Below are positions 25,613 through 33,520 of a stretch of 64,000 nt of DNA, piece after piece. The translations under genes were made by a program, and so were the position numbers. The notes beneath the pieces were generated by a model. It was not told the origin of the DNA and ran no database searches. It was given only the letters and a program-made list of their open reading frames with translations. This stretch comes from Deltaproteobacteria bacterium (lineage in GTDB: Bacteria > Myxococcota_A > Polyangia > Polyangiales > Houyiibacteriaceae). The stretch lies in assembly GCA_034670305.1 (NCBI GenBank), contig JAXMNT010000019.1, forward strand, positions 64,001 to 128,000, given 5' to 3'. Numbering within the stretch: position 1 is the first letter of the stretch; each line of letters starts with the position of its first letter.

Positions 25613-26524
25613 ATGAGCATCGAAACCGTGGGTGTCGTGGGTTGTGGCCAGATGGGCCGAGGCATCGTGCAAGCGTGCGCAACAGCTGGTTTTCAGGTGA
25701 AAGCGATCAAAGCCACCGGCGGAGATCTGACGAAGGTCCAGGCGAAGTTCGACAAGTCGATCGGCCGGCAGCTGCAGAAGGGTCGGATCGACCAGGCGAC
25801 GCACGATCAGATCTTGGCGCGCATCGAACTCACGTCCGACCTCGCGTGCATCGCCGATTGCGATCTCGTCATCGAGTCCGCACTCGAAGACATGGAGACC
25901 AAAGTCGCGCTCCTTCGGGATCTCGAGTCCCGCATGACCAACGGGGCGGTGCTCGCCTCCAACACCTCATCGCTTCCGTTGAACGACCTGGCGGCGAAGC
26001 TCAACCGTCCGGCGCAGTTCCTCGCGCTGCACTTCTTCAACCCCGCCCACGTCATGAAACTGGTCGAGCTCGGCGTGACCGAGCAGACCGCCCCGGGTGC
26101 GCTGGAGACCTGCCGCGCCTTCTGCGTCGCCATCGGCAAGACGCCCGTGCAGGTCAGCGCGTCTCCGGGCTACGTGGTCAACCGCCTGCTCGTCCCGTAC
26201 ATGCTCCACGCCATCGAGACCCTCGAGAGCGGCATCGCGGGGCCGGGCGCCATCGACACCGCCATGCAGCTCGGCTGCAACCACCCCATCGGCCCGCTCG
26301 CGCTCGCGGACCTCATCGGCCTCGACGTGGTCATGGCCATGGCGACCACCTTGTCGCGCGAGCTCCAGGACACCCGCTACCGGATCCCCTCCACCCTGCG
26401 CGCCCTCGTCTCGTCGCAACAGCTCGGCTGCAAGACCGGCGTCGGCATCTACGACTACGCCGGCGAGCAACCCGTCCTCAACCCCGCCCTGCGCTTCACC
26501 CCGGTCGCGGACGCCGCCGAGTAG
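25613..26524 (+). CDS. 3-hydroxybutyryl/3-hydroxyacyl-CoA dehydrogenase
   Basis: GCGQMGRGI, ASNTSSL, HFFNPA, PGYVVNRL and HPIGPLALADLIGLD. Confidence 0.93.
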   Translation: MSIETVGVVGCGQMGRGIVQACATAGFQVKAIKATGGDLTKVQAKFDKSIGRQLQKGRIDQATHDQILARIELTSDLACIADCDLVIESALEDMETKVALLRDLESRMTNGAVLASNTSSLPLNDLAAKLNRPAQFLALHFFNPAHVMKLVELGVTEQTAPGALETCRAFCVAIGKTPVQVSASPGYVVNRLLVPYMLHAIETLESGIAGPGAIDTAMQLGCNHPIGPLALADLIGLDVVMAMATTLSRELQDTRYRIPSTLRALVSSQQLGCKTGVGIYDYAGEQPVLNPALRFTPVADAAE

Positions 26525-26539
26525 CGGGCTCCAAAAGCG

Positions 26540-26585
26540 AACGAAGAGAGAAACCAGCGCCCTCCCGCGCTGGCTTCTTTCGTTT
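26540..26585 (+). terminator. Probable terminator hairpin
   Basis: CCAGCGC/GCGCTGG stem with purine/pyrimidine extensions and a T-rich tail, after the stop codon. Confidence 0.55.
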
Positions 26586-26592
26586 CGAGTCT

Positions 26593-26860
<268 letters not shown>

Positions 26861-26914
26861 TAGCCTCTTCCTTCGGAAGTCGGCTCCTTCATCCTTCGGA
26901 CTCGGAGGGGCCTG

Positions 26915-27044
26915 GGTGGGCTTGCTGGCTCGGCGGCATTTTCATCGTGGCGGAGTGCTCGGCCGCCTCAAGGGTGCCTTCGGCCCCAGCCTTCGGAAGG
27001 CTGGCTTCGCCCTTGACCCGCCCTCCGCTCTCCACCGGGGGCGC
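26915..27044 (+). promoter_or_regulatory. Conserved structured non-coding leader, copy A
   Basis: Collinear similarity to the minus strand of 32552-32710; TCAAGGG/CCCTTGA stem enclosing hairpins. Confidence 0.7.
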
Positions 27045-27099
27045 ACAGAGTGCGCCGCCGAGCAACGTTGCTCATCTTCTTCGGCGCGAGGAGGCTCGG

Positions 27100-27411
27100 A
27101 TGATTGTTCTCGAATCTACTTTCGTTCTCGTTGGTGAGTTGCGCGATGTGCTGGCGGCGGTTTCTCGCAAGGACCGTTCGCTCGCGGACCAGATCCGGCG
27201 GGCGGCTCAGTCCGTCGTGTTGAACTGCGCGGAGGCACAGCATGCGCGCGGAAAGCGGAGCGTGGACCGTTTCTCCATCGCATACGGCGAGGCGAGCGAG
27301 TTGAAGGCGGCGCTGCGGTTGGTCCGGGTGTTTGGATACGCCGAGGTGGGTGAACCGGTGCTGCGGCGCTGCGATGAGGTCTGCGCAATGTTGTATCGCC
27401 TCAGTCGGTAG
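27100..27411 (+). CDS. Four-helix-bundle protein (23S IVS/bAvd-like family), 103 aa
   Basis: GAGGAGG RBS; LADQIRRAAQSVVLNCAEA...F.IAYGEASELKAAL signature; T-rich codons unlike the neighbouring genes. Confidence 0.88.
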   Translation: MIVLESTFVLVGELRDVLAAVSRKDRSLADQIRRAAQSVVLNCAEAQHARGKRSVDRFSIAYGEASELKAALRLVRVFGYAEVGEPVLRRCDEVCAMLYRLSR

Positions 27412-27462
27412 GTCGACACCGAGGCCCGCACAGGAGCGGGCCTCGGCCTCGGCTTCGGCTCC

Positions 27463-28023
27463 CTACTCCTCCGCGGGCGCGAAGTTCATCGCCACACCGT
27501 TGATGCAGTAGCGCAGCCCCGTCGGCTCCGGGCCGTCGGGGAAGACGTGGCCCAGGTGTCCGTTGCAGCGTGCGCACAAGACCTCGGTGCGGACCATGCC
27601 GAACGCGGTGTCGGCGTCTTCGAGCACCCGGCCGTCTTCGATCGGCGCGGTGAAGGAAGGCCAGCCGGTGCCCGACTCGAACTTCGTGGCGGATGCGAAG
27701 AGCGGCGCGCCGCATCCGGCGCAGACGTAGGTGCCAGCGCGGTGTTCGTCCCAGGTGCGGTCGGTGTACGGGCGCTCGGTGCCCTTCTCTCGAAGCACGT
27801 AGTACTGCGCTTCGGTCAGGCGCTCGCGCCACTCGGCTTCGGTGAGCACGAGTCGGTCACCGATCGGTGGCGCCGGTCCGAGCACGACTTCGTCATGGTC
27901 AGACTCCGAAGAAGCCGTGGTCGAAGACGCGCTCGGCGCTTCTCCACGGCTGCACCCGAGTGAGCCGCACGCCGCGAGCAAGGGAGTCGATGCGAGTCCG
28001 AAGAGGAAGTGGCGTCGTTGCAT
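27463..28023 (-). CDS. msrB: Peptide-methionine (R)-S-oxide reductase with Tat-like signal
   Basis: MQRRHFL leader; [28 protein letters not shown] and RYCIN. Confidence 0.95.
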
Positions 28024-28073
28024 ACAAGAGTCCTTACGTCGGGGCCCGCCCCCCGTTACGCGCGCGGGCATCC

Positions 28074-28468
28074 TTCGGATCGGCTTCTGCGTCGGCTTCT
28101 CTGCGTCGGCTTCTCTGCGTCGGCGTCGGCTTCGGCTTCTGCGTCGGCTTCGGCGTCGGCTTCTGCGTCGGCGTCGGCTTCTGCGTCGGCGTCGGCTTCG
28201 GCTTCTGCGTCGGCTTCTGCGTCGGCTTCTGCGTCGGCTTCTGCGTCGGCTTCTGCGTCGGCTTCTGCGTCGGCTTCTGCGTCGGCTTCTGCGTCGGCTT
28301 CTGCGTCGGCTTCGGCGTCGGCGTCGGCGTCGGCATCGGCTTCGGCGTCGGCTTCGGCGTCGGCGTCGGCGTCGGCTTCGGCGTCGGCTTCGGCGTCGGC
28401 TTCGGATTCGGCGTCGGCGTCGGACTCGGATTCGGATTCGGCTTCGGCTTCGGCTTCCGCCTCCGCCC
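28074..28468. repeat. Microsatellite (GGCTTC/TGCGTC/GGCGTC/GGATTC)n
   Basis: A ~390-bp tract of 6/12-bp periodicity between the dinB stop and the msrB start. Confidence 0.95.
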
Positions 28469-29662
28469 TCAGGAGCCGCCCGGCTTCCCGTCCGGCGGCG
28501 CGTCGACCAGGGTGCCGCGCACGATCGTGCCGCTGCCGAACTTGTGTCCGAGCGCTTGGGTGAGCGCTTCGATCTGTTCGCGTTTCTTCTTCCGTTCGTC
28601 CGGGAAGAGCACCGGCTCGGGCGGCCCACTCGTGAGCTCGCCGACGCTCACCCCGGTCAATCGAATGCCGCGGTGCAGGTCCTCGAACTTCGCGAGGAGC
28701 ACGCGTACGGCGTCGTAGATCGAGTCGGTGTCCGCCACGCTCTCTGGCAAACGCATTTGCCGGCTCCGGACCCGGTGGTTGCCGTACTTGATCTTGAGCG
28801 TGACCACCTGCGCGCGCAGGTCGAGTCGGCTGAGCCGGCCGGCCACCCGCGCCGACTGTTGCAAGAGCACCGGCTCGAGCTGCGCGGCGGTGTGTCGATC
28901 CTTCTCGAAGGTCTGCTCGGCGCCCAGGCTCTTCGCGCCCCGCTCGGACACCACTTCACGGTCGTCGATGCCGTGCGCGAACGCGTGGATGTGGCGGCCC
29001 CACGATCCGAGGAGGGACTCGAGCGCATCCGGGTCGGTGGAGGCCAGATCGCCGAACGTGTGAAACCCGCACGCATGAAGACGCTCCGCCGCCTTGGGGC
29101 CCACGCCCCACATGCGCTCGATTTTTAGCGGCGCGAGGAACGCGCGTTTGCCTTCCTCCGCGACCACCACCAGGCCGTCGGGTTTGTCGAGGTCGCTGGC
29201 CACCTTCGCGACGAACTTGTTCGGGGCGACCCCCGCGCTTCCCCGCAGCCCGGTCGCGTCGAAGATGTCCTGCTTGATGCGCTTGGCGATCGTGACCGGA
29301 TCCCCGATCGCCGCGCGGCTCCCGGTGACGTCCAAGAACGCTTCGTCCAGGCTCAAGCCCTCCACAATCGGCGTGTAGCGGTGGAAGACGTCGAACACGG
29401 CATCGCTGACTTCTTGGTAGCGCTCCATGCGCCCCGACACGACGACCGCGTGCGGACAGCGCTGCATGGCTTCGACCATCGACATCGCACTGCGCACCCC
29501 GAACTTCCGAACCTCGTACGAGGCGGCGGCCACCACGCCACGACGCGAGTGCCCGCCCACGATGACCGGCTTGCCCCGCAGCGACGGGTCGTCGAGCTGC
29601 TCCACCGACGCGTAGAACGCATCCATGTCGACATGCAGGATCCCGCGCTCCATCGCGCGCAT
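28469..29662 (-). CDS. dinB: DNA polymerase IV
   Basis: [31 protein letters not shown] and [11 protein letters not shown]. Confidence 0.96.
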
Positions 29663-29716
29663 GTTAGCAGCCGGGTGAGACGGTCTGTGCGCCGAGCACG
29701 CTCGGACGCGGGAAGC

Positions 29717-30271
29717 TCAGCTGAACTGCTTCAGGTGGTGCGCGCGACGCGTGGACGGATCGTAGAAGACGAACACCGAGCCGTGCATGTAGTACGAGTC
29801 CACCCGGGCGACGAAACGCCAGCCGTCCCCTCTCGGGGGATCGGGCGACTGGACCCAGACCGGCTCGCCGAGCTGGAGCCAGAGCTTGTCCTCCGGCCCG
29901 TACGCAGAGGCCGCTTCGATGAGGTGGGCTTTGCCGGAGTCGACCTCTGCGAACGTCGCGGGGCCTTCTTCGAATGTCTCCGCCCACTCCGATCCACGGG
30001 TCGGGTCGGCCGGTGGGCTGCCGTCCACGTCGACGAGCGTCCAGGTGTCGCCGTCCTGCTGTACGACGAAGGTCTCATCGACCGCGCCGGTGGCGAATCC
30101 GACACAGAGCGCGTGGTGTCCCGCGAGGTCGTCGAAGAGCACGCCGAGATCGAGCAGGACGAGCGGCTCGAAGAACCGCGGGTCGAGGCTGGGCTGGGTG
30201 ATCACTCGGGGCGGATGGCACACGTGCGGGCCCGAGGGCGAGAGTTCGAAGCGATGGACGGGAGGAGACAT
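29717..30271 (-). CDS. Hypothetical protein
   Basis: Coding-like codon bias; the C-terminal GEPVWVQ..F.ARVDS..G.VFVFY is weakly DUF1963-like; start uncertain. Confidence 0.55.
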   Translation of the reverse strand: MSPPVHRFELSPSGPHVCHPPRVITQPSLDPRFFEPLVLLDLGVLFDDLAGHHALCVGFATGAVDETFVVQQDGDTWTLVDVDGSPPADPTRGSEWAETFEEGPATFAEVDSGKAHLIEAASAYGPEDKLWLQLGEPVWVQSPDPPRGDGWRFVARVDSYYMHGSVFVFYDPSTRRAHHLKQFS

Positions 30272-30377
30272 CGGCGAACCATGCCTCGCGAAGCTGGTCT
30301 CTGACCAGAGCGCGGAGACTGGCAAGGCCATCGAGAGGTATGCTGCACAACTTGCCAGGATATGAATGGGGACGCTG

Positions 30378-30908
30378 TCAGTCACCGAAATCAACGCAGC
30401 TTACGGCGCGGCAACGAAAACACCGTGAACTCCCGGTCACTTGGTACCTGGTACAACGCTCTCCAACTCCACATTCGTCATCGTCGGCGCAGCGATCCCT
30501 TCCGCTTCTACACTCAAGTGCCACCGCTTGAGCTGCGCCGTCTCGGCGATAGCAACCCAGTGACACGCCGCAGTCTTCGAGGGGGCAATCACCGGTACAG
30601 CGATCAGGCAAGCACCTGTTCCGGCCATCAGGATCCGCAGAACAAACGCACCTTTCTCCTGCGGCGCAGTCCTCGCTTGTCGCGCAGTCATGATAGGTAC
30701 ATTCGTGTTGGGTAGATGAGATTCGATGGCACCTGCCCTCGACTCCGTCGGTGCACTCCGAGTGAGTCCTGCAGCCCACGCCTCCTGGTCCAGGAAACAA
30801 ACCGTCGAAGTCACGGGGTCCGAGATCGCAGCGATCGGCCACAACCCTCGGGTCGCTTTCCCAACTGGCGCATCCAACAACTAGGAAGAAGAGTAGGAAC
30901 CTCACCAC
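30378..30908 (-). CDS. Cys-rich lipoprotein with atypical codon usage
   Basis: VVRFLLFFLVVGC signal and many regularly spaced Cys residues; visibly lower GC. Confidence 0.6.
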   Translation of the reverse strand: MVRFLLFFLVVGCASWESDPRVVADRCDLGPRDFDGLFPGPGGVGCRTHSECTDGVEGRCHRISSTQHECTYHDCATSEDCAAGERCVCSADPDGRNRCLPDRCTGDCPLEDCGVSLGCYRRDGAAQAVALECRSGRDRCADDDECGVGERCTRYQVTGSSRCFRCRAVSCVDFGD

Positions 30909-30943
30909 CGGCACTCCCCCCGCAAAAAGTAGATCGAGTTGGA

Positions 30944-31792
30944 TCAGAAGGCCGTGACGACCAAGTCGCAGAAGGTGGCGCCGATGGGGCTCACGTCGCG
31001 GCCCTCGGTCTCGTGGCTGCCGAGCTCCACCGCGAACCCGCTCGTGGTCAGCGCGGTCTCGTAGTACGCGATGTCGCCCACCACGCGGCTGAAGGGCGCA
31101 CCGTCGCGCGTGACGTCGAGGACTTGTTGGTGCGTCTCGGCGTTCCACTCCGCCCGCACCCGATAGCTGGCGCCAGGCACCCAGGGCGCGCGCTCCCGGA
31201 ACGTCGTGTAGCTCATGAAGCCCATGCCCATGGGACGCGGTTCCAGGTCCACCCGACCGAAGAAGAGCGTCGTTCGATCGAGCCCGGGGGCGCGGGGCGG
31301 AAACACCTGCGCGCCGAGCCCACCGAGGTACCGCACGCGGGAAGGGGAACCGTTGCGCGTGAACCCGAAGAGGTTGTGGTTGAGGACGTCCCGGTCGAAC
31401 AGGTCTTCGCGCCACGGCCCGGTTTCGATCGTCATCTCGATCACGACCACCGGATGTTCGGTCCCGACCTCGCCGAAGGGGATGCGCAAGATCTCGTCCG
31501 CCGCCTCGACCGTGAAGAAACACCCGTCGCGTCGAACGAGTTCCGTCCCAGCCGAGCCAGCGTCGTCGTCGATCGAACCCGCATCGACCCCGCCGTCCAC
31601 CGCACCGCTGTCCGTGCCCGCATCCTCAGCGGCTGCGTCGACCGGATCGAACGCGTCGGAAGACGCCGTGTCGCCGCCCCCCGCATCGACCGCCGCGTCC
31701 AAGCCCACCGACGCGTCGTCCACCGAAGTCTCGTCCCCGCACGCCATCAACGCGCACAACAGCAGCGCCCAACACACGTGATTCAGCCCCAT
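30944..31792 (-). CDS. Hypothetical lipoprotein
   Basis: LMACGDE lipobox, acidic DAG linker and a beta-rich C-terminal domain. Confidence 0.7.
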   Translation of the reverse strand: MGLNHVCWALLLCALMACGDETSVDDASVGLDAAVDAGGGDTASSDAFDPVDAAAEDAGTDSGAVDGGVDAGSIDDDAGSAGTELVRRDGCFFTVEAADEILRIPFGEVGTEHPVVVIEMTIETGPWREDLFDRDVLNHNLFGFTRNGSPSRVRYLGGLGAQVFPPRAPGLDRTTLFFGRVDLEPRPMGMGFMSYTTFRERAPWVPGASYRVRAEWNAETHQQVLDVTRDGAPFSRVVGDIAYYETALTTSGFAVELGSHETEGRDVSPIGATFCDLVVTAF

Positions 31793-31846
31793 GGCCACGG
31801 AGTCTACCGCGAACCGCCCCCACACGCCCTGGACCCCCCGCACTCA

Positions 31847-32072
31847 GCGTCGGCGCTTCGGCTTCGGATTCGGATTCGGCTTCGGATTCGGATTCGGCAT
31901 CGGCGTCGGCGTCGGCGTCGGATTCGGCGTCGGCGTCGGATTCGGATTCGGATTCGGATTCGGATTCGCGTCGGCGTCGGCGTCGGTATCGGATTCGGCG
32001 TATCGGATTCGGCTTCGGCTTCGGCGTGGGCTTGGGCTTCAGCTTCGGTTTCGGATTCGGCATCCGCATCGG
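31847..32072. repeat. Microsatellite (GGATTC/GGCGTC/GGCTTC)n
   Basis: Abuts the stop codon of the decayed four-helix-bundle gene. Confidence 0.95.
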
Positions 32073-32426
32073 TCAGACCTGCAGAGCCGCCTTCACTTCG
32101 CGCGCTTCGCCAAGCGCGCGCGAGAACCCGTCCGGGTTCCGGCCGCCCCGTGCGCTCCGAGACTCCGCAATCAGCAACGGAATCGCTTGAGCCGCCCGCC
32201 GGAGCTGCGACTTCAGCGAGGCCTCGCGAATGCGAGGCAAGACCTCACGGACGAGAAGCGAGAGAAGAAGAAGCGACTTGTCGGTATTGCTGGTCTCTCG
32301 CGGGGTTCCTGCGGGCCCAGACGCCTTCGGCTTTCTTGGGGCCCTTGGAAACGGCTCTGGACCTGCTCGTCGCTTCGCTCCTGCGCGGGCCCAGAGCCTC
32401 CCGCGCGCGAGAGACAATACCAGCAT
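32073..32426 (-). pseudogene. Degenerate four-helix-bundle gene (in-frame insertion, last helix missing)
   Basis: MLVL[44 aa]DKSLLLLSLLVREVL..SLKSQLRRAAQAIPLLIAE..F.RALGEAREVKAALQV* aligns by eye with 27100-27411. Confidence 0.75.
32283..32421. repeat. Cruciform palindromic element inside the four-helix-bundle ORF
   Basis: Terminal IR GTCTCTCGCG/CGCGAGAGAC plus GGTATTG/CAATACC; two inner hairpins with CTTCG loops. Confidence 0.7.
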
Positions 32427-32471
32427 CGAGAACCTGCCTTGTGTACGCCGAGCGTGAACTCGCCCGAGGGC

Positions 32472-32549
32472 GCGTTTGTTGTCTGAGGGGGATGGCCACA
32501 TCCCCCTCCGGCCTGCGGGGCCAAGCCCCTCCGGCCTCCTCCCCAACTT
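32472..32549 (+). repeat. 78-bp REP-like double-hairpin element
   Basis: 74/78 identical to the reverse complement of 47206-47283. Confidence 0.9.
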
Positions 32550-32551
32550 GG

Positions 32552-32710
32552 GCGCCCCCAGCTGTCGGCGGGGTGGCGGGTCAAGGACGAGCCAGCGCCG
32601 CGTCAGCGGCGCGCCAGCGAAGCGGCGGGCATCGCGCCGGGCCGAAGGCCTCCTTGAGGCGCCGCCCCGCCGACCGCTACGCTGGACCATCCATCGGGCC
32701 AGCACCCACC
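32552..32710 (-). promoter_or_regulatory. Conserved structured non-coding leader, copy B
   Basis: Long stem GTCGGCGGGG..TCAAGGA / TCCTTGA..CCCCGCCGAC; collinear with copy A. Confidence 0.7.
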
Positions 32711-32748
32711 TCCACGAGAAGGGGTGTGACAGCTGCGGTTGTCGATTG

Positions 32749-32889
32749 CGGCGTCGGCCTCGGCGTCGGCGTCGGATTCGGATTCGGCTTCGGCGTCGGC
32801 GTCGGCGTCGGCTTCGGCGTCGGCGTCGGCTTCGGCTTCGGCGTCGGCCTCGGCGTCGGCTTCGGCGTCGGCTACCGCTAGCGCTTCCG
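32749..32889. repeat. Microsatellite (GGCGTC/GGCTTC)n
   Basis: Lies between leader B and the CoA-transferase B stop codon. Confidence 0.95.
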
Positions 32890-32890
32890 T

Positions 32891-33520
32891 CTACGTCCGC
32901 AGTTCGCCGCCCGTCGCTTCGCGCGCCTGCGCTTCGGTCACGCCAGGCGCCAGCTCGACGAGGCCGAAGTGATCGCCCTTGCAATCGAACACACCCAGAT
33001 CCGTCACCACGCGGCTCACCACGCCCACCGCGGTGAGCGGGAACGAGCACGTGGTCACGAGCTTGGGCTTGTTCTTCTTCGTGACGTGCATCGTCAGAAC
33101 CAGGATGCGCTTGGCGCCCGCCGCCAGATCCATCGCGCCACCGATGCCCATGGTCCGTCCTCCGGGGATGGCCCAGTTCGCGAGGTCGCCGTTGGCCGCG
33201 ACCTGCATCGCACCGAGGATCGCGAGGTCCACGTGGCCGCCGCGGATCATGCCGAAGCTCGTCGCGCTGTCGAACGTGCTGCCGCCGGTGACGATGGTGA
33301 CCGTCTGCTTGCCCGCGTTGATGATCTGCGCGTCCTCGTCGCCTTCGTATGGGAAGGGACCCATGCCGAGGATCCCGTTCTCGCTCTGAAGCCAGATGCC
33401 GCGCCCCTCTTCGAGGTGGTCCGCGACCAGCGTCGGCAAGCCGATGCCGAGGTTCACGATGCTGCCGTCTTCGATCTCGGCGGCGGCCCGTTGGGCGATC
33501 TCGATCTTGCTGAACGGCAT
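32891..33520 (-). CDS. 3-oxoacid CoA-transferase subunit B
   Basis: VNLGIGLPT, QSENG (catalytic Glu), SFGMIRGGHVD and GGAMDL. Confidence 0.95.
   Translation of the reverse strand: MPFSKIEIAQRAAAEIEDGSIVNLGIGLPTLVADHLEEGRGIWLQSENGILGMGPFPYEGDEDAQIINAGKQTVTIVTGGSTFDSATSFGMIRGGHVDLAILGAMQVAANGDLANWAIPGGRTMGIGGAMDLAAGAKRILVLTMHVTKKNKPKLVTTCSFPLTAVGVVSRVVTDLGVFDCKGDHFGLVELAPGVTEAQAREATGGELRT

Follow-up and report, generated by a model that had tools for sequence, protein, structure and literature searches.

A stretch of 64,000 nucleotides (nt) from a Polyangiales genome (GenBank assembly GCA_034670305.1, contig JAXMNT010000019.1, positions 64,001 to 128,000; hereafter the window) carries two copies of a folded element, which we call the leader, each upstream of a gene for a four-helix-bundle (4HB) protein. 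Copy A spans positions 26915-27075 of the plus strand, ~35 nt 5' of a 4HB open reading frame (ORF) of 103 amino acids (aa), and copy B lies on the minus strand. Their family comprises three leader types (T1, T2 and T3), which correspond to three diverged proteins. A first-pass annotation of the window had taken the two copies for a covarying, multi-branched leader with the geometry of a promoter that works on single-stranded DNA (ssDNA). The sequence observation behind that proposal was confirmed, and its interpretation is partly supported by the analysis presented here. The features of the locus, in which P and H denote the stems and hairpins of the leader, are the following:

26583-26859, plus strand: hexanucleotide/trinucleotide array of (CAG)n and (CAGCAA)n, upstream of copy A
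26860-26913, plus strand: two mini-hairpins that make up the upstream module, their triloops reading TTC in the sense and GAA in the antisense direction
26914-26920, plus strand: G-rich box GGGTGGG, kept in all three leader types
26928-26934, plus strand: P1 5' arm GCTCGGC, pairing with 27057-27063
26944-26949, minus (antisense) strand: -10-like hexamer CACGAT
26949-26964, plus strand: P2 5' arm of 16 nt, pairing with 27020-27036; its antisense strand is the putative promoter spacer
26966-26971, minus (antisense) strand: -35-like hexamer TTGAGG (TTGACG in most T1 copies)
26968-26974, plus strand: P3 5' arm TCAAGGG, pairing with CCCTTGA at 27010-27016
26976-26984, plus strand: hairpin H1, GCC-TTC-GGC (antisense GCC-GAA-GGC, a mini-hairpin of the CCGAAGG type)
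26986-27004, plus strand: hairpin H2 of 8 bp with loop CGG, replaced in other types by one or two different hairpins
27020-27036, plus strand: P2 3' arm
27037-27056, plus strand: G-run followed by hairpin P4 (GGCGCAC-AGA-GTGCGCC, 27040-27056), opposite the -10-like element
27057-27063, plus strand: P1 3' arm GCCGAGC
27060-27073, plus strand: small hairpin GAGCA-ACGT-TGCTC, an alternative pairing that overlaps the P1 3' arm
27100-27411, plus strand: 4HB gene, 103 aa (PF05635 23S_rRNA_IVP, E 2.6e-14; TIGR02436 'four helix bundle protein', E 3.3e-16)
27419-27446, plus strand: GC-rich hairpin 3' of the gene, with an 11-bp stem and no T run; the right cassette end, retained in gene-less copies
32453-32705, minus strand: copy B leader, type T2, with its P4 loop broken by a hairpin-rich insertion of ~80 nt (~32551-32470)
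32073-32426, minus strand: copy B gene remnant, truncated at its 3' end (PF05635, 30.4 bits against a cut-off of 33.8)

The collinear blocks noted in the first-pass annotation are present in copy A (plus strand, 26915-27044) and in copy B (minus strand of 32552-32710). Their core stem covaries, reading TCAAGGG/CCCTTGA in copy A (26968-26974 with 27010-27016) and TCAAGGA/TCCTTGA in copy B; the outer stems differ in sequence and retain their pairing, and the inner hairpin is expanded in copy B, which has two hairpins where copy A has one. The antisense hexamers likewise read as described, TTGAGG-N16-CACGAT at 26971-26944 and TTGAGG-N18-TACGCT at 32654-32683. Three points needed revision, of which the one on loop types is given with the loop counts below. 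The fold does lie at 26915-27044, but the whole structure is larger, with P1 and P4 outside or at the edge of that span; and a leader does stand upstream of both 4HB genes, but copy B is decayed and what follows it is the gene remnant listed above.

On the sense strand, the leader runs in the order P1, junction J1/2, P2, a three-base junction, P3, the triplet CCC, the P2 3' arm, a G-run and the P1 3' arm. P1, the closing stem, and P2, a stem of 16-18 nt, are unlike in sequence in every lineage and always pair. J1/2 is single-stranded, 10-14 nt long, and ends in A-N-S-G-T. P3, of the form TCAAGGN/NCCTTGA, encloses H1, one or two more hairpins and the sequence CTTCG, and the G-run that follows the P2 3' arm is joined in some types by hairpin P4.

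The two copies are members of a multicopy cassette family. A 22-nt core pattern matched 36 places in the 7.93-Mb genome of the window, compared with none for a reversed control, and the protein family PF05635 matched 47. We built a covariance model from the T1 and T2 leaders and re-aligned the aligned copies with it, because MAFFT, applied to the three types together, put the 3' half of T3 in the wrong register. This model identified 40 strong leader copies in the genome, of which 36 are followed by a PF05635 match; conversely, 36 of the 47 PF05635 matches have a leader. The gene begins 35-60 nt beyond P1 in these 36 of 40 copies. Copy B is among the family's members (locus L010; 103.6 bits, insertion included). 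The four leaders without a gene (C22:10036, C18:54470, C54:5125 and C1:200927 in the window's genome, G000) are deletion derivatives, and in the first three of them the 5' part of the leader is fused to the GC hairpin that normally follows the gene. In these three, the sequence between the leader's 3' part (broken at the P2 3' arm or in the P4 loop) and the post-gene hairpin is lost, and with it roughly what an RNA started at the G-run would cover. The remaining 11 PF05635 matches constitute a fourth cassette type with a different structured leader. Cassettes of that type, which include G000 C14:16486, C15:131727, C1:298705, C32:46375, C5:239589 and C63:24547, have a leader with a 10-bp hairpin closed by a GAAAA loop, a conserved mini-array of six CCCTTG/CCGTTG-like units and several GC hairpins, and with no TTGAC box.

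Every cassette has the same order of parts: hexanucleotide array, mini-hairpins, leader, gene, GC hairpin, hexanucleotide array. Arrays of period 6n, which are found beside nearly every cassette, are abundant in the genome (1505 arrays, 187 kb in total), and examples in the window lie at 26583-26859, 31860-32070 and 32740-32900. Their units consist of one fixed and one variable half (CAG-NNN, CCG-NNN), and such arrays also flank 4HB cassettes in relatives from other families. The unit family tracks the cassette type (CCGAAG-like with T2, CCGCTT-like with T3, CCGATT/CCGTGT-like in the relative G057), and the arrays on the two sides of a cassette usually have the same orientation. Cassettes are often clustered 1-6 kb apart, sometimes with mixed types and with arrays between them, as at G000 C46:57813 and C46:58823, C11:27301 and C11:29261, and C1:195449, 200927 and 206494. 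For the part of the locus next to the repeat array, four DNA runs yielded only family variants and short contigs, with no empty site and no informative joint. The 4HB protein itself matched no PHROGs or PADLOC family.

In an alignment of 47 copies from four genomes, 92.2% of cells were paired, compared with 72.5% after shuffling, a value that none of 500 shuffles reached. Covariation is strong in P1, P2, P3 and the inner hairpins: of the 39 pairs, 27 change on both sides, and the covariation score was 0.454, compared with 0.137 for shuffled alignments and at most 0.10 when the partners were slid. Both-sided changes affect five of the six pairs of P1, which is 97.8% paired, and 16 of the 17 pairs of P2. 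This alignment was fitted to the structure and hence favours it; the stems are also visible in the raw sequences of lineages that have no arm sequence in common. Within P3, TCAA/TTGA is fixed as sequence, and the inner three pairs flip from GGG/CCC to CCC/GGG in two lineages (for example TCAACCC/GGGTTGA at locus L103). RNA folds of the single sequences of copies A and B were not significant (z = -1.35 and -1.31). Folded as DNA, the leaders gave z values of -2 to -8, with P3 and P2 forming a stem of ~28 bp. The covariation between two copies seen in the first-pass annotation thus holds in a larger alignment, and the multi-stemmed fold is real.

Among 61 related genomes, four, including the window's own, contained the leader; with an improved model it was found in 16 of 151 genomes of the order (15 of the 150 others), across six families. 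As at most 19 candidates were scored in each genome, the numbers per genome are lower bounds, such as at least 19 copies in G070 and at least 14 in G057. A phylum-wide sample added a single scoring genome, G192, which is discussed below. In the chromosome of a complete Polyangiales metagenome-assembled genome, 17 of 18 related 4HB loci had an upstream plus-strand leader match, one of them partial. In all relatives inspected, a 4HB-like ORF lies 0-50 nt 3' of the leader, and 6-nt arrays precede most leaders. Conservation of the fold extends to at least six families of the order, always in association with 4HB genes. Rfam returned no match at the gathering score for the whole window and, for 26400-33200 at E values up to 10, returned only chance matches of microRNA and leader models to the repeat arrays. 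Whatever becomes of the promoter interpretation considered below, the element is a well-supported, strand-specific family of structured DNA or RNA that is absent from Rfam.

The first-pass annotation had put forward the asymmetry between G-T and A-C mismatches as a means of identifying the folding strand. We counted transition-type mismatches in P2 and its junction arm, with identical copies collapsed and the remainder grouped by lineage, so that inherited states were counted once. Since the complement of a sense-strand A·C mismatch is a G·T wobble, an excess of such sites shows P2 to be under selection for pairing on the antisense strand. Mismatches polymorphic within a group comprised 19 A·C and one G·U (11 and one, respectively, when scored by covariance-model columns), and those fixed within a multicopy group comprised four A·C and no G·U. 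The independent genome G012 gave six A·C and no G·U in P2, and one of these A·C sites was kept while both adjacent pairs covaried. Single-copy lineages had five A·C at scattered sites versus ten G·U at one homologous position. No comparable bias was seen among transitions on the sense strand of the neighbouring genes (G>A 55, C>T 43, T>C 26, A>G 9; Fisher's exact test, 19:1 versus 81:52, p = 0.002), so that mutational bias does not account for the asymmetry in P2. For this long stem, the comparison points to the gene-antisense, or template, strand as the one that folds.

The loops of the small hairpins provide a second test. Among 96 distinct triloop hairpins with at least four perfect pairs, 51 have the sense-strand form C-TNC-G and hence C-GNA-G on the complement, and all four bases occur at the variable position (TGC 20, TTC 20, TAC 6, TCC 5); only two carry C-GNA-G on the sense strand. 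The d(C-GNA-G) mini-hairpin, a GNA triloop closed by a C-G pair, is described as lying on the functional strand in phage G4 origin, in RSF1010 ssiA (as CCGAAGG) and in the promoters of phage N4 (PMC13037366), and GCGNAGC/CCGAAGG mini-hairpins are described as very stable in DNA and much less so in RNA (PMC13037366; PMC3201870). The antisense sequence of H1 in copy A is CCGAAGG, as in RSF1010 ssiA. The GAA loops that the first-pass annotation ascribed to the antisense strand are, in copy A, found only in H1; H2 and P4 have the antisense loops CCG and TCT. As to the UUCG loops of its alternative, a structured RNA, the TTCG-containing loops are triloops by register, as a tetraloop register would leave their stems unpaired, and they are not UNCG tetraloops.

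Taken together, these two independent tests, one on P2 mismatches and one on loops, point to the gene-antisense strand as the seat of function, and the loop type and the strand bias lead us to infer a folded DNA, not an antisense RNA. A non-coding RNA made against the 4HB gene would profit equally from antisense G·U tolerance, which suits RNA as well as DNA. No promoter or terminator for such a transcript is visible, however, and it would have to start inside or beyond the 4HB gene; the perfect GC stems of 16-18 bp and the C-GNA-G triloops are of the DNA type, their RNA versions being described as much less stable (PMC13037366). We consider an antisense RNA very unlikely.

A function on the sense strand, as an RNA, has more in its favour. 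The RNA could be a 5' leader that regulates the 4HB gene, or a guide of the seekRNA or bridge-RNA type that directs insertion into the hexamer arrays with a transposase supplied in trans. The element lies in the position of a 5' untranslated region, and in T1, T2 and T3 alike a GAGC...GCTC hairpin overlaps the P1 3' arm; P1 and this small hairpin are consequently mutually exclusive, which could be relevant to an RNA-level switch. A T·G pair at P2 position 12 in ten lineages and G·U-type sites in P1 and P3 also suit an RNA, as does the location of each cassette type in type-specific arrays. Both strand tests point the opposite way, however, the loops are not of the UNCG kind, and Rfam holds no match. 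A comparison of the loops with the flanking arrays, made by eye only, gave short GC-rich matches, none of them consistent.

The arrangement of short motifs on the antisense strand is that of a promoter facing the gene, with the folding strand as the 4HB template strand. We read these motifs from the leader sequences of about 26 lineages. A -35-like box (TTGACG, TTGAGG, TTGACC, TTTACT or TTTACG) is present in 24 of 26; the spacer, which is the P2 arm, measures 16, 17 or 18 nt in every lineage; and a -10-like element NACNNT follows, with A at -11 in all 26 lineages, C at -10 in 25 and T at -7 in 24. The sole recurrent uncompensated change in P3 turns TTGAC into TTTAC; TTTACA is a working form of the -35 box, as in the lac promoter. 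P2 ends with a pair formed by the first base of the -10-like hexamer, which leaves the -11 A as the first base without a partner, as in copy A; a C-run lies opposite the hexamer, so that the -10 region would be melted in advance.

These features suggest the following mechanism. When the template strand is single-stranded, P3 and P2 would form a continuous duplex of ~28 bp, held together by the GNA mini-hairpins and the closing stem P1. One arm of this duplex would present the -35-like box (TTGACG, TTGAGG, TTTACT) and, 16-18 nt further on, NACNNT, thereby resembling a pre-melted fork-junction promoter to which host RNA polymerase would bind only on the single-stranded template. Transcription would start opposite the C-run (at the sense G-run) and proceed through P4, the P1 3' arm and the ribosome-binding site to yield the 4HB mRNA; the same RNA could prime synthesis of the complementary strand, as for Frpo/ssi signals. 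The analysis establishes the fold and its covariation, the strand asymmetry, the loop type, the conserved geometry and the constant link to the gene, whereas the use of RNA polymerase, the start site at the G-run and the source of the ssDNA are inferred. A hairpin promoter, or a priming signal, that acts on ssDNA is, in our view, the best available account of the leader, and one that we advance tentatively, at somewhat short of an even chance.

Several observations weigh against the ssDNA promoter. With respect to the boxes, the hexamers are weak, copy A agreeing with the consensus at seven of 12 positions, and a scan with an E. coli-type consensus found no promoter-like sites at copy A or copy B. 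Two lineages have TGGACG and TCGACG in place of the -35-like box, a change for which the opposite arm compensates; the 17 copies of the G012 lineage, with CACTCA or CACGAA/CACGAG, lack the -7 T; and no A+T tract like that of an UP element is present. The geometry proposed at the outset was borne out in most lineages as to boxes, spacing and orientation, but not as to the strength of the hexamers, and the conservation of the -10-like hexamer stops short of G012. With respect to the strand, a T·G at P2 position 12 is conserved in ten single-copy lineages (T·T in the T1 copies of this genome), the few wobble sites outside P2 are G·U (three or four, with two in P1, one in P3 and one in P4) and none are A·C, and DNA folding energies favour neither strand, the antisense strand being more stable in four of six lineages. 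Finally, nothing points to a source of ssDNA: the leader had no blastn match among 72,556 plasmid records or 50,697 phage records, and the cassettes are dispersed in the chromosome among housekeeping genes and not in the leading region of a conjugative element, although no genome-wide search for transfer genes was made. With respect to local GC skew, the cassettes of the window's genome show an orientation of 30 of 38, versus 6 of 18 in the complete relative.

The first-pass annotation had named transfer, uptake or the lagging strand as the source of ssDNA; given the chromosomal location among housekeeping genes and the inconsistent orientation to replication, none of these has support. Exposure at the replication fork was rejected, as the 30 of 38 orientation would place the sense and not the antisense strand on the lagging-strand template, and with the 6 of 18 in the relative no consistent picture emerged. 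We also considered enzymes that could generate or use ssDNA. Three reverse transcriptase genes (PF00078) are present in the genome, and none adjoins a cassette. The 11 genes for HUH transposases (Y1_Tnp, PF01797) lie in an element of their own, whose long inverted ends are unrelated to the cassette. That element (G000 C20:45721, C31:83470, C38:23649, C68:18551 and seven more copies) encodes a protein of ~235 aa between inverted repeats of ~100 nt, which is unusual for IS200-type genes. A link to IS110 was likewise rejected, with no PF01548 match in the window's genome (96% completeness), and in the IS110-family elements of four other genomes (G012, G057, G070 and G149) the leader structure is not present.

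The case of ssDNA acting as a site, rather than as a promoter, deserves separate consideration. The fold of the template strand could be recognized by a recombinase, nickase, transposase or primase and serve as the end of a cassette that is copied or moved, in the manner of an integron attC site, a repetitive extragenic palindromic (REP) or IS200/IS605 end, or a primase-type ssi. Such a site would draw on the same strand and loop evidence as the promoter, and several features suit it well: the multicopy state, the four gene-less derivatives that all keep the leader (three of them also the 3' hairpin), both ends being kept as is typical of a mobile element, and the fixation of TCAA/TTGA as sequence while adjoining pairs covary. 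CCGAAGG mini-hairpins are described in primase signals (PMC13037366), and IS1111-family elements are described as targeting folded sites such as attC and REP (PMC11187229). Yet no enzyme is tied to the cassettes: the Y1-type transposases lie elsewhere with different ends, and an IS110-family transposase is absent from the genome. Neither a target duplication nor an empty site was found, and a bare site would leave unexplained both the constant distance of 16-18 nt to the invariant A...T and the fixed position and direction relative to the start codon. We regard this alternative as unlikely, though not negligible.

The conserved boxes could also belong to an ordinary duplex promoter on the antisense strand, firing outward into the upstream array, with the stems serving, for example, cruciform extrusion. 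The conservation of the boxes and of the 16-18 nt spacing is compatible with this, and arrays do lie directly downstream of such a start. It would, however, leave the covariation of P1, P2 and P3 and the strand-specific loops without explanation, and the hexamers are too weak for the duplex consensus scan; an outward promoter appears highly improbable, slightly more so than an antisense RNA.

The genome G192 bears on both the ssDNA promoter and the sense-strand RNA. There, the leader model matches 11 near-identical places, with scores of 39.9 bits (E ~1e-7 on the locus) or 38.5 bits. The structure starts at the end of a gene for a 372-aa IS110-family transposase that has the IS1111 motif GL-P----SG, and it lies inside the ~870-nt non-coding part of this IS1111-type element, where guide RNAs are encoded. 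According to PMC11187229, GL-P----SG is the motif of IS1111 elements, whose seekRNA is encoded in the downstream non-coding part, and members of this group insert into potentially folded sites, attC and REP. This location weighs against the ssDNA promoter and in favour of a sense-strand guide RNA. However, ~15 nt resembling the beginning of a T2-type 4HB gene come directly after the structure, which may therefore be a captured cassette fragment; moreover, PF01548 is absent from the window's genome, and the IS110-family elements of four other carriers lack the structure. The G192 element (loci L159-L164) is ~2 kb long, with a 24-nt tandem repeat after the leader and a TTGACA box 27 nt from its right end, and gave only chance-type matches to Rfam. 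With the strand tests opposed to it, we judge a sense-strand RNA unlikely as well, and a little more doubtful than an ssDNA site without promoter function.

If the ssDNA promoter is the correct reading, a wider scenario suggests itself. The cassettes of 4HB genes, which are of the intervening-sequence (IVS) type and Avd-like, would be mobile by way of their template strand as ssDNA; their sole gene would be switched on only then, through the hairpin promoter; the same signal would prime the second strand; and the flanking arrays would be landing sites or by-products of the process. As a whole, we hold this scenario to be speculative and rather improbable, more so than any single ssDNA-site or sense-RNA explanation considered above.

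Some further features of the locus concern the individual copies. The upstream module of copy A is common to T1 and T3 copies; one of its hairpins is CTTCC-TTC-GGAAG at 26867-26879, and its stems covary between copies (GTCC/GGAC versus ATCC/GGAT). A pairing partner for the GGGTGGG box, sought by eye only, was not consistently seen. In copy B, a ~130-nt insertion (~32414-32283) interrupts the gene after its fourth codon. Its inverted ends read GGTATTG...CAATACC, and a similar element lies upstream of the PF05635 match at G000 C32:46375. The ~80-nt insertion in the copy B leader, which resembles a miniature inverted-repeat transposable element, is also found in the T1 leaders at G000 C28:6854 and C68:36083, at different structural positions. 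The neighbours of copies A and B are housekeeping genes for a 3-hydroxyacyl-CoA dehydrogenase, a CoA transferase and a Y-family polymerase. The last of these, a DNA polymerase gene of the DinB/UmuC type (IMS) at 28469-29662 on the minus strand, lies between the two cassettes, which is probably a coincidence.

Promoters and priming signals that work on ssDNA occur in conjugative plasmids, in filamentous and isometric phages and in rolling-circle replicons, all of which have an obvious source of ssDNA. Here, this design recurs ~40 times in a single bacterial chromosome, and at least 15 further genomes of the order have it too, always before one gene family. To our knowledge, this family (PF05635/TIGR02436, the 23S rRNA IVS protein and a relative of Avd) is very large and has no function known outside diversity-generating retroelements. 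A promoter confined to ssDNA, if true, would tell when the 4HB genes are expressed and would imply a single-stranded stage of the cassette. The wider scenario above, if true, would provide a function-linked origin for the unusually dense microsatellites of these Polyangiales genomes and a first handle on a very large protein family.

Among known systems, the single-strand origins of the ssoA type in rolling-circle plasmids and integrative conjugative elements and the minus-strand origin of M13 are strand-specific ssDNA folds of ~150 nt in which host RNA polymerase recognizes promoter-like boxes. Unlike these, the 4HB cassettes have neither a Rep gene nor a double-strand origin, and the leader is fixed in both direction and spacing relative to the 4HB start codon, a constraint unnecessary for a site that serves priming alone.

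The Frpo/ssi signals of the F plasmid, in which folded ssDNA mimics a duplex promoter (Masai and Arai 1997, as cited in PMC11541004), are alike in three respects: the -35 and -10 elements (here -35-like and -10-like boxes) share a single arm, the downstream gene has the folded strand as its template, and the transcript can serve as mRNA or primer (PMC11541004), as that of the leader would. The leader differs in being chromosomal, with 40 copies, rather than located in an oriT-adjacent leading region, and in having no sequence similarity to plasmids or phages. It is also GC-rich, with a weak -10, no A+T-rich UP element and a multi-branched form with a closing stem, and the gene that it serves encodes a 4HB protein, not an anti-defence protein, single-stranded DNA-binding protein or PsiB. 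The GNA mini-hairpin signals of the G4 origin, RSF1010 ssiA and N4 share C-GNA-G on the functional strand, including CCGAAGG (PMC13037366). Those signals are short and are read by primases or the N4 virion polymerase, whereas here several mini-hairpins decorate a structure of 140-170 nt that has sigma-70-like boxes.

The seekRNA and bridge RNA of IS1111 and IS110 elements (PMC11187229) resemble the leader in being structured, non-coding, 80-180 nt long and carried by a site-specific element that is present in many copies. In contrast to these, the window's genome has no DEDD (PF01548) transposase, the strand tests oppose a sense RNA, and no guide-target match was established.

A further known system is that of the ORFs within IVSs of 23S rRNA, as in Coxiella burnetii (PMC4990558), which encode the same PF05635/TIGR02436 family. 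The leader cassettes differ from IVSs in lying outside rRNA (the window contains none), and their flanking 6-nt arrays are direct repeats, not inverted pairing arms. Their structured part, moreover, is a self-contained upstream element with antisense signals, in place of an RNase III stem around the ORF. Both kinds of element are small and selfish-looking, have gene-less derivatives and carry short tandem repeats on both sides. In Coxiella, whose IVS is the best studied, the protein is described as apparently not made in vivo (PMC4990558); a promoter active only on ssDNA, if that is what the leader is, would address this puzzle, and the wider scenario above would account for the silent, promoterless appearance of such ORFs within duplex DNA or rRNA.

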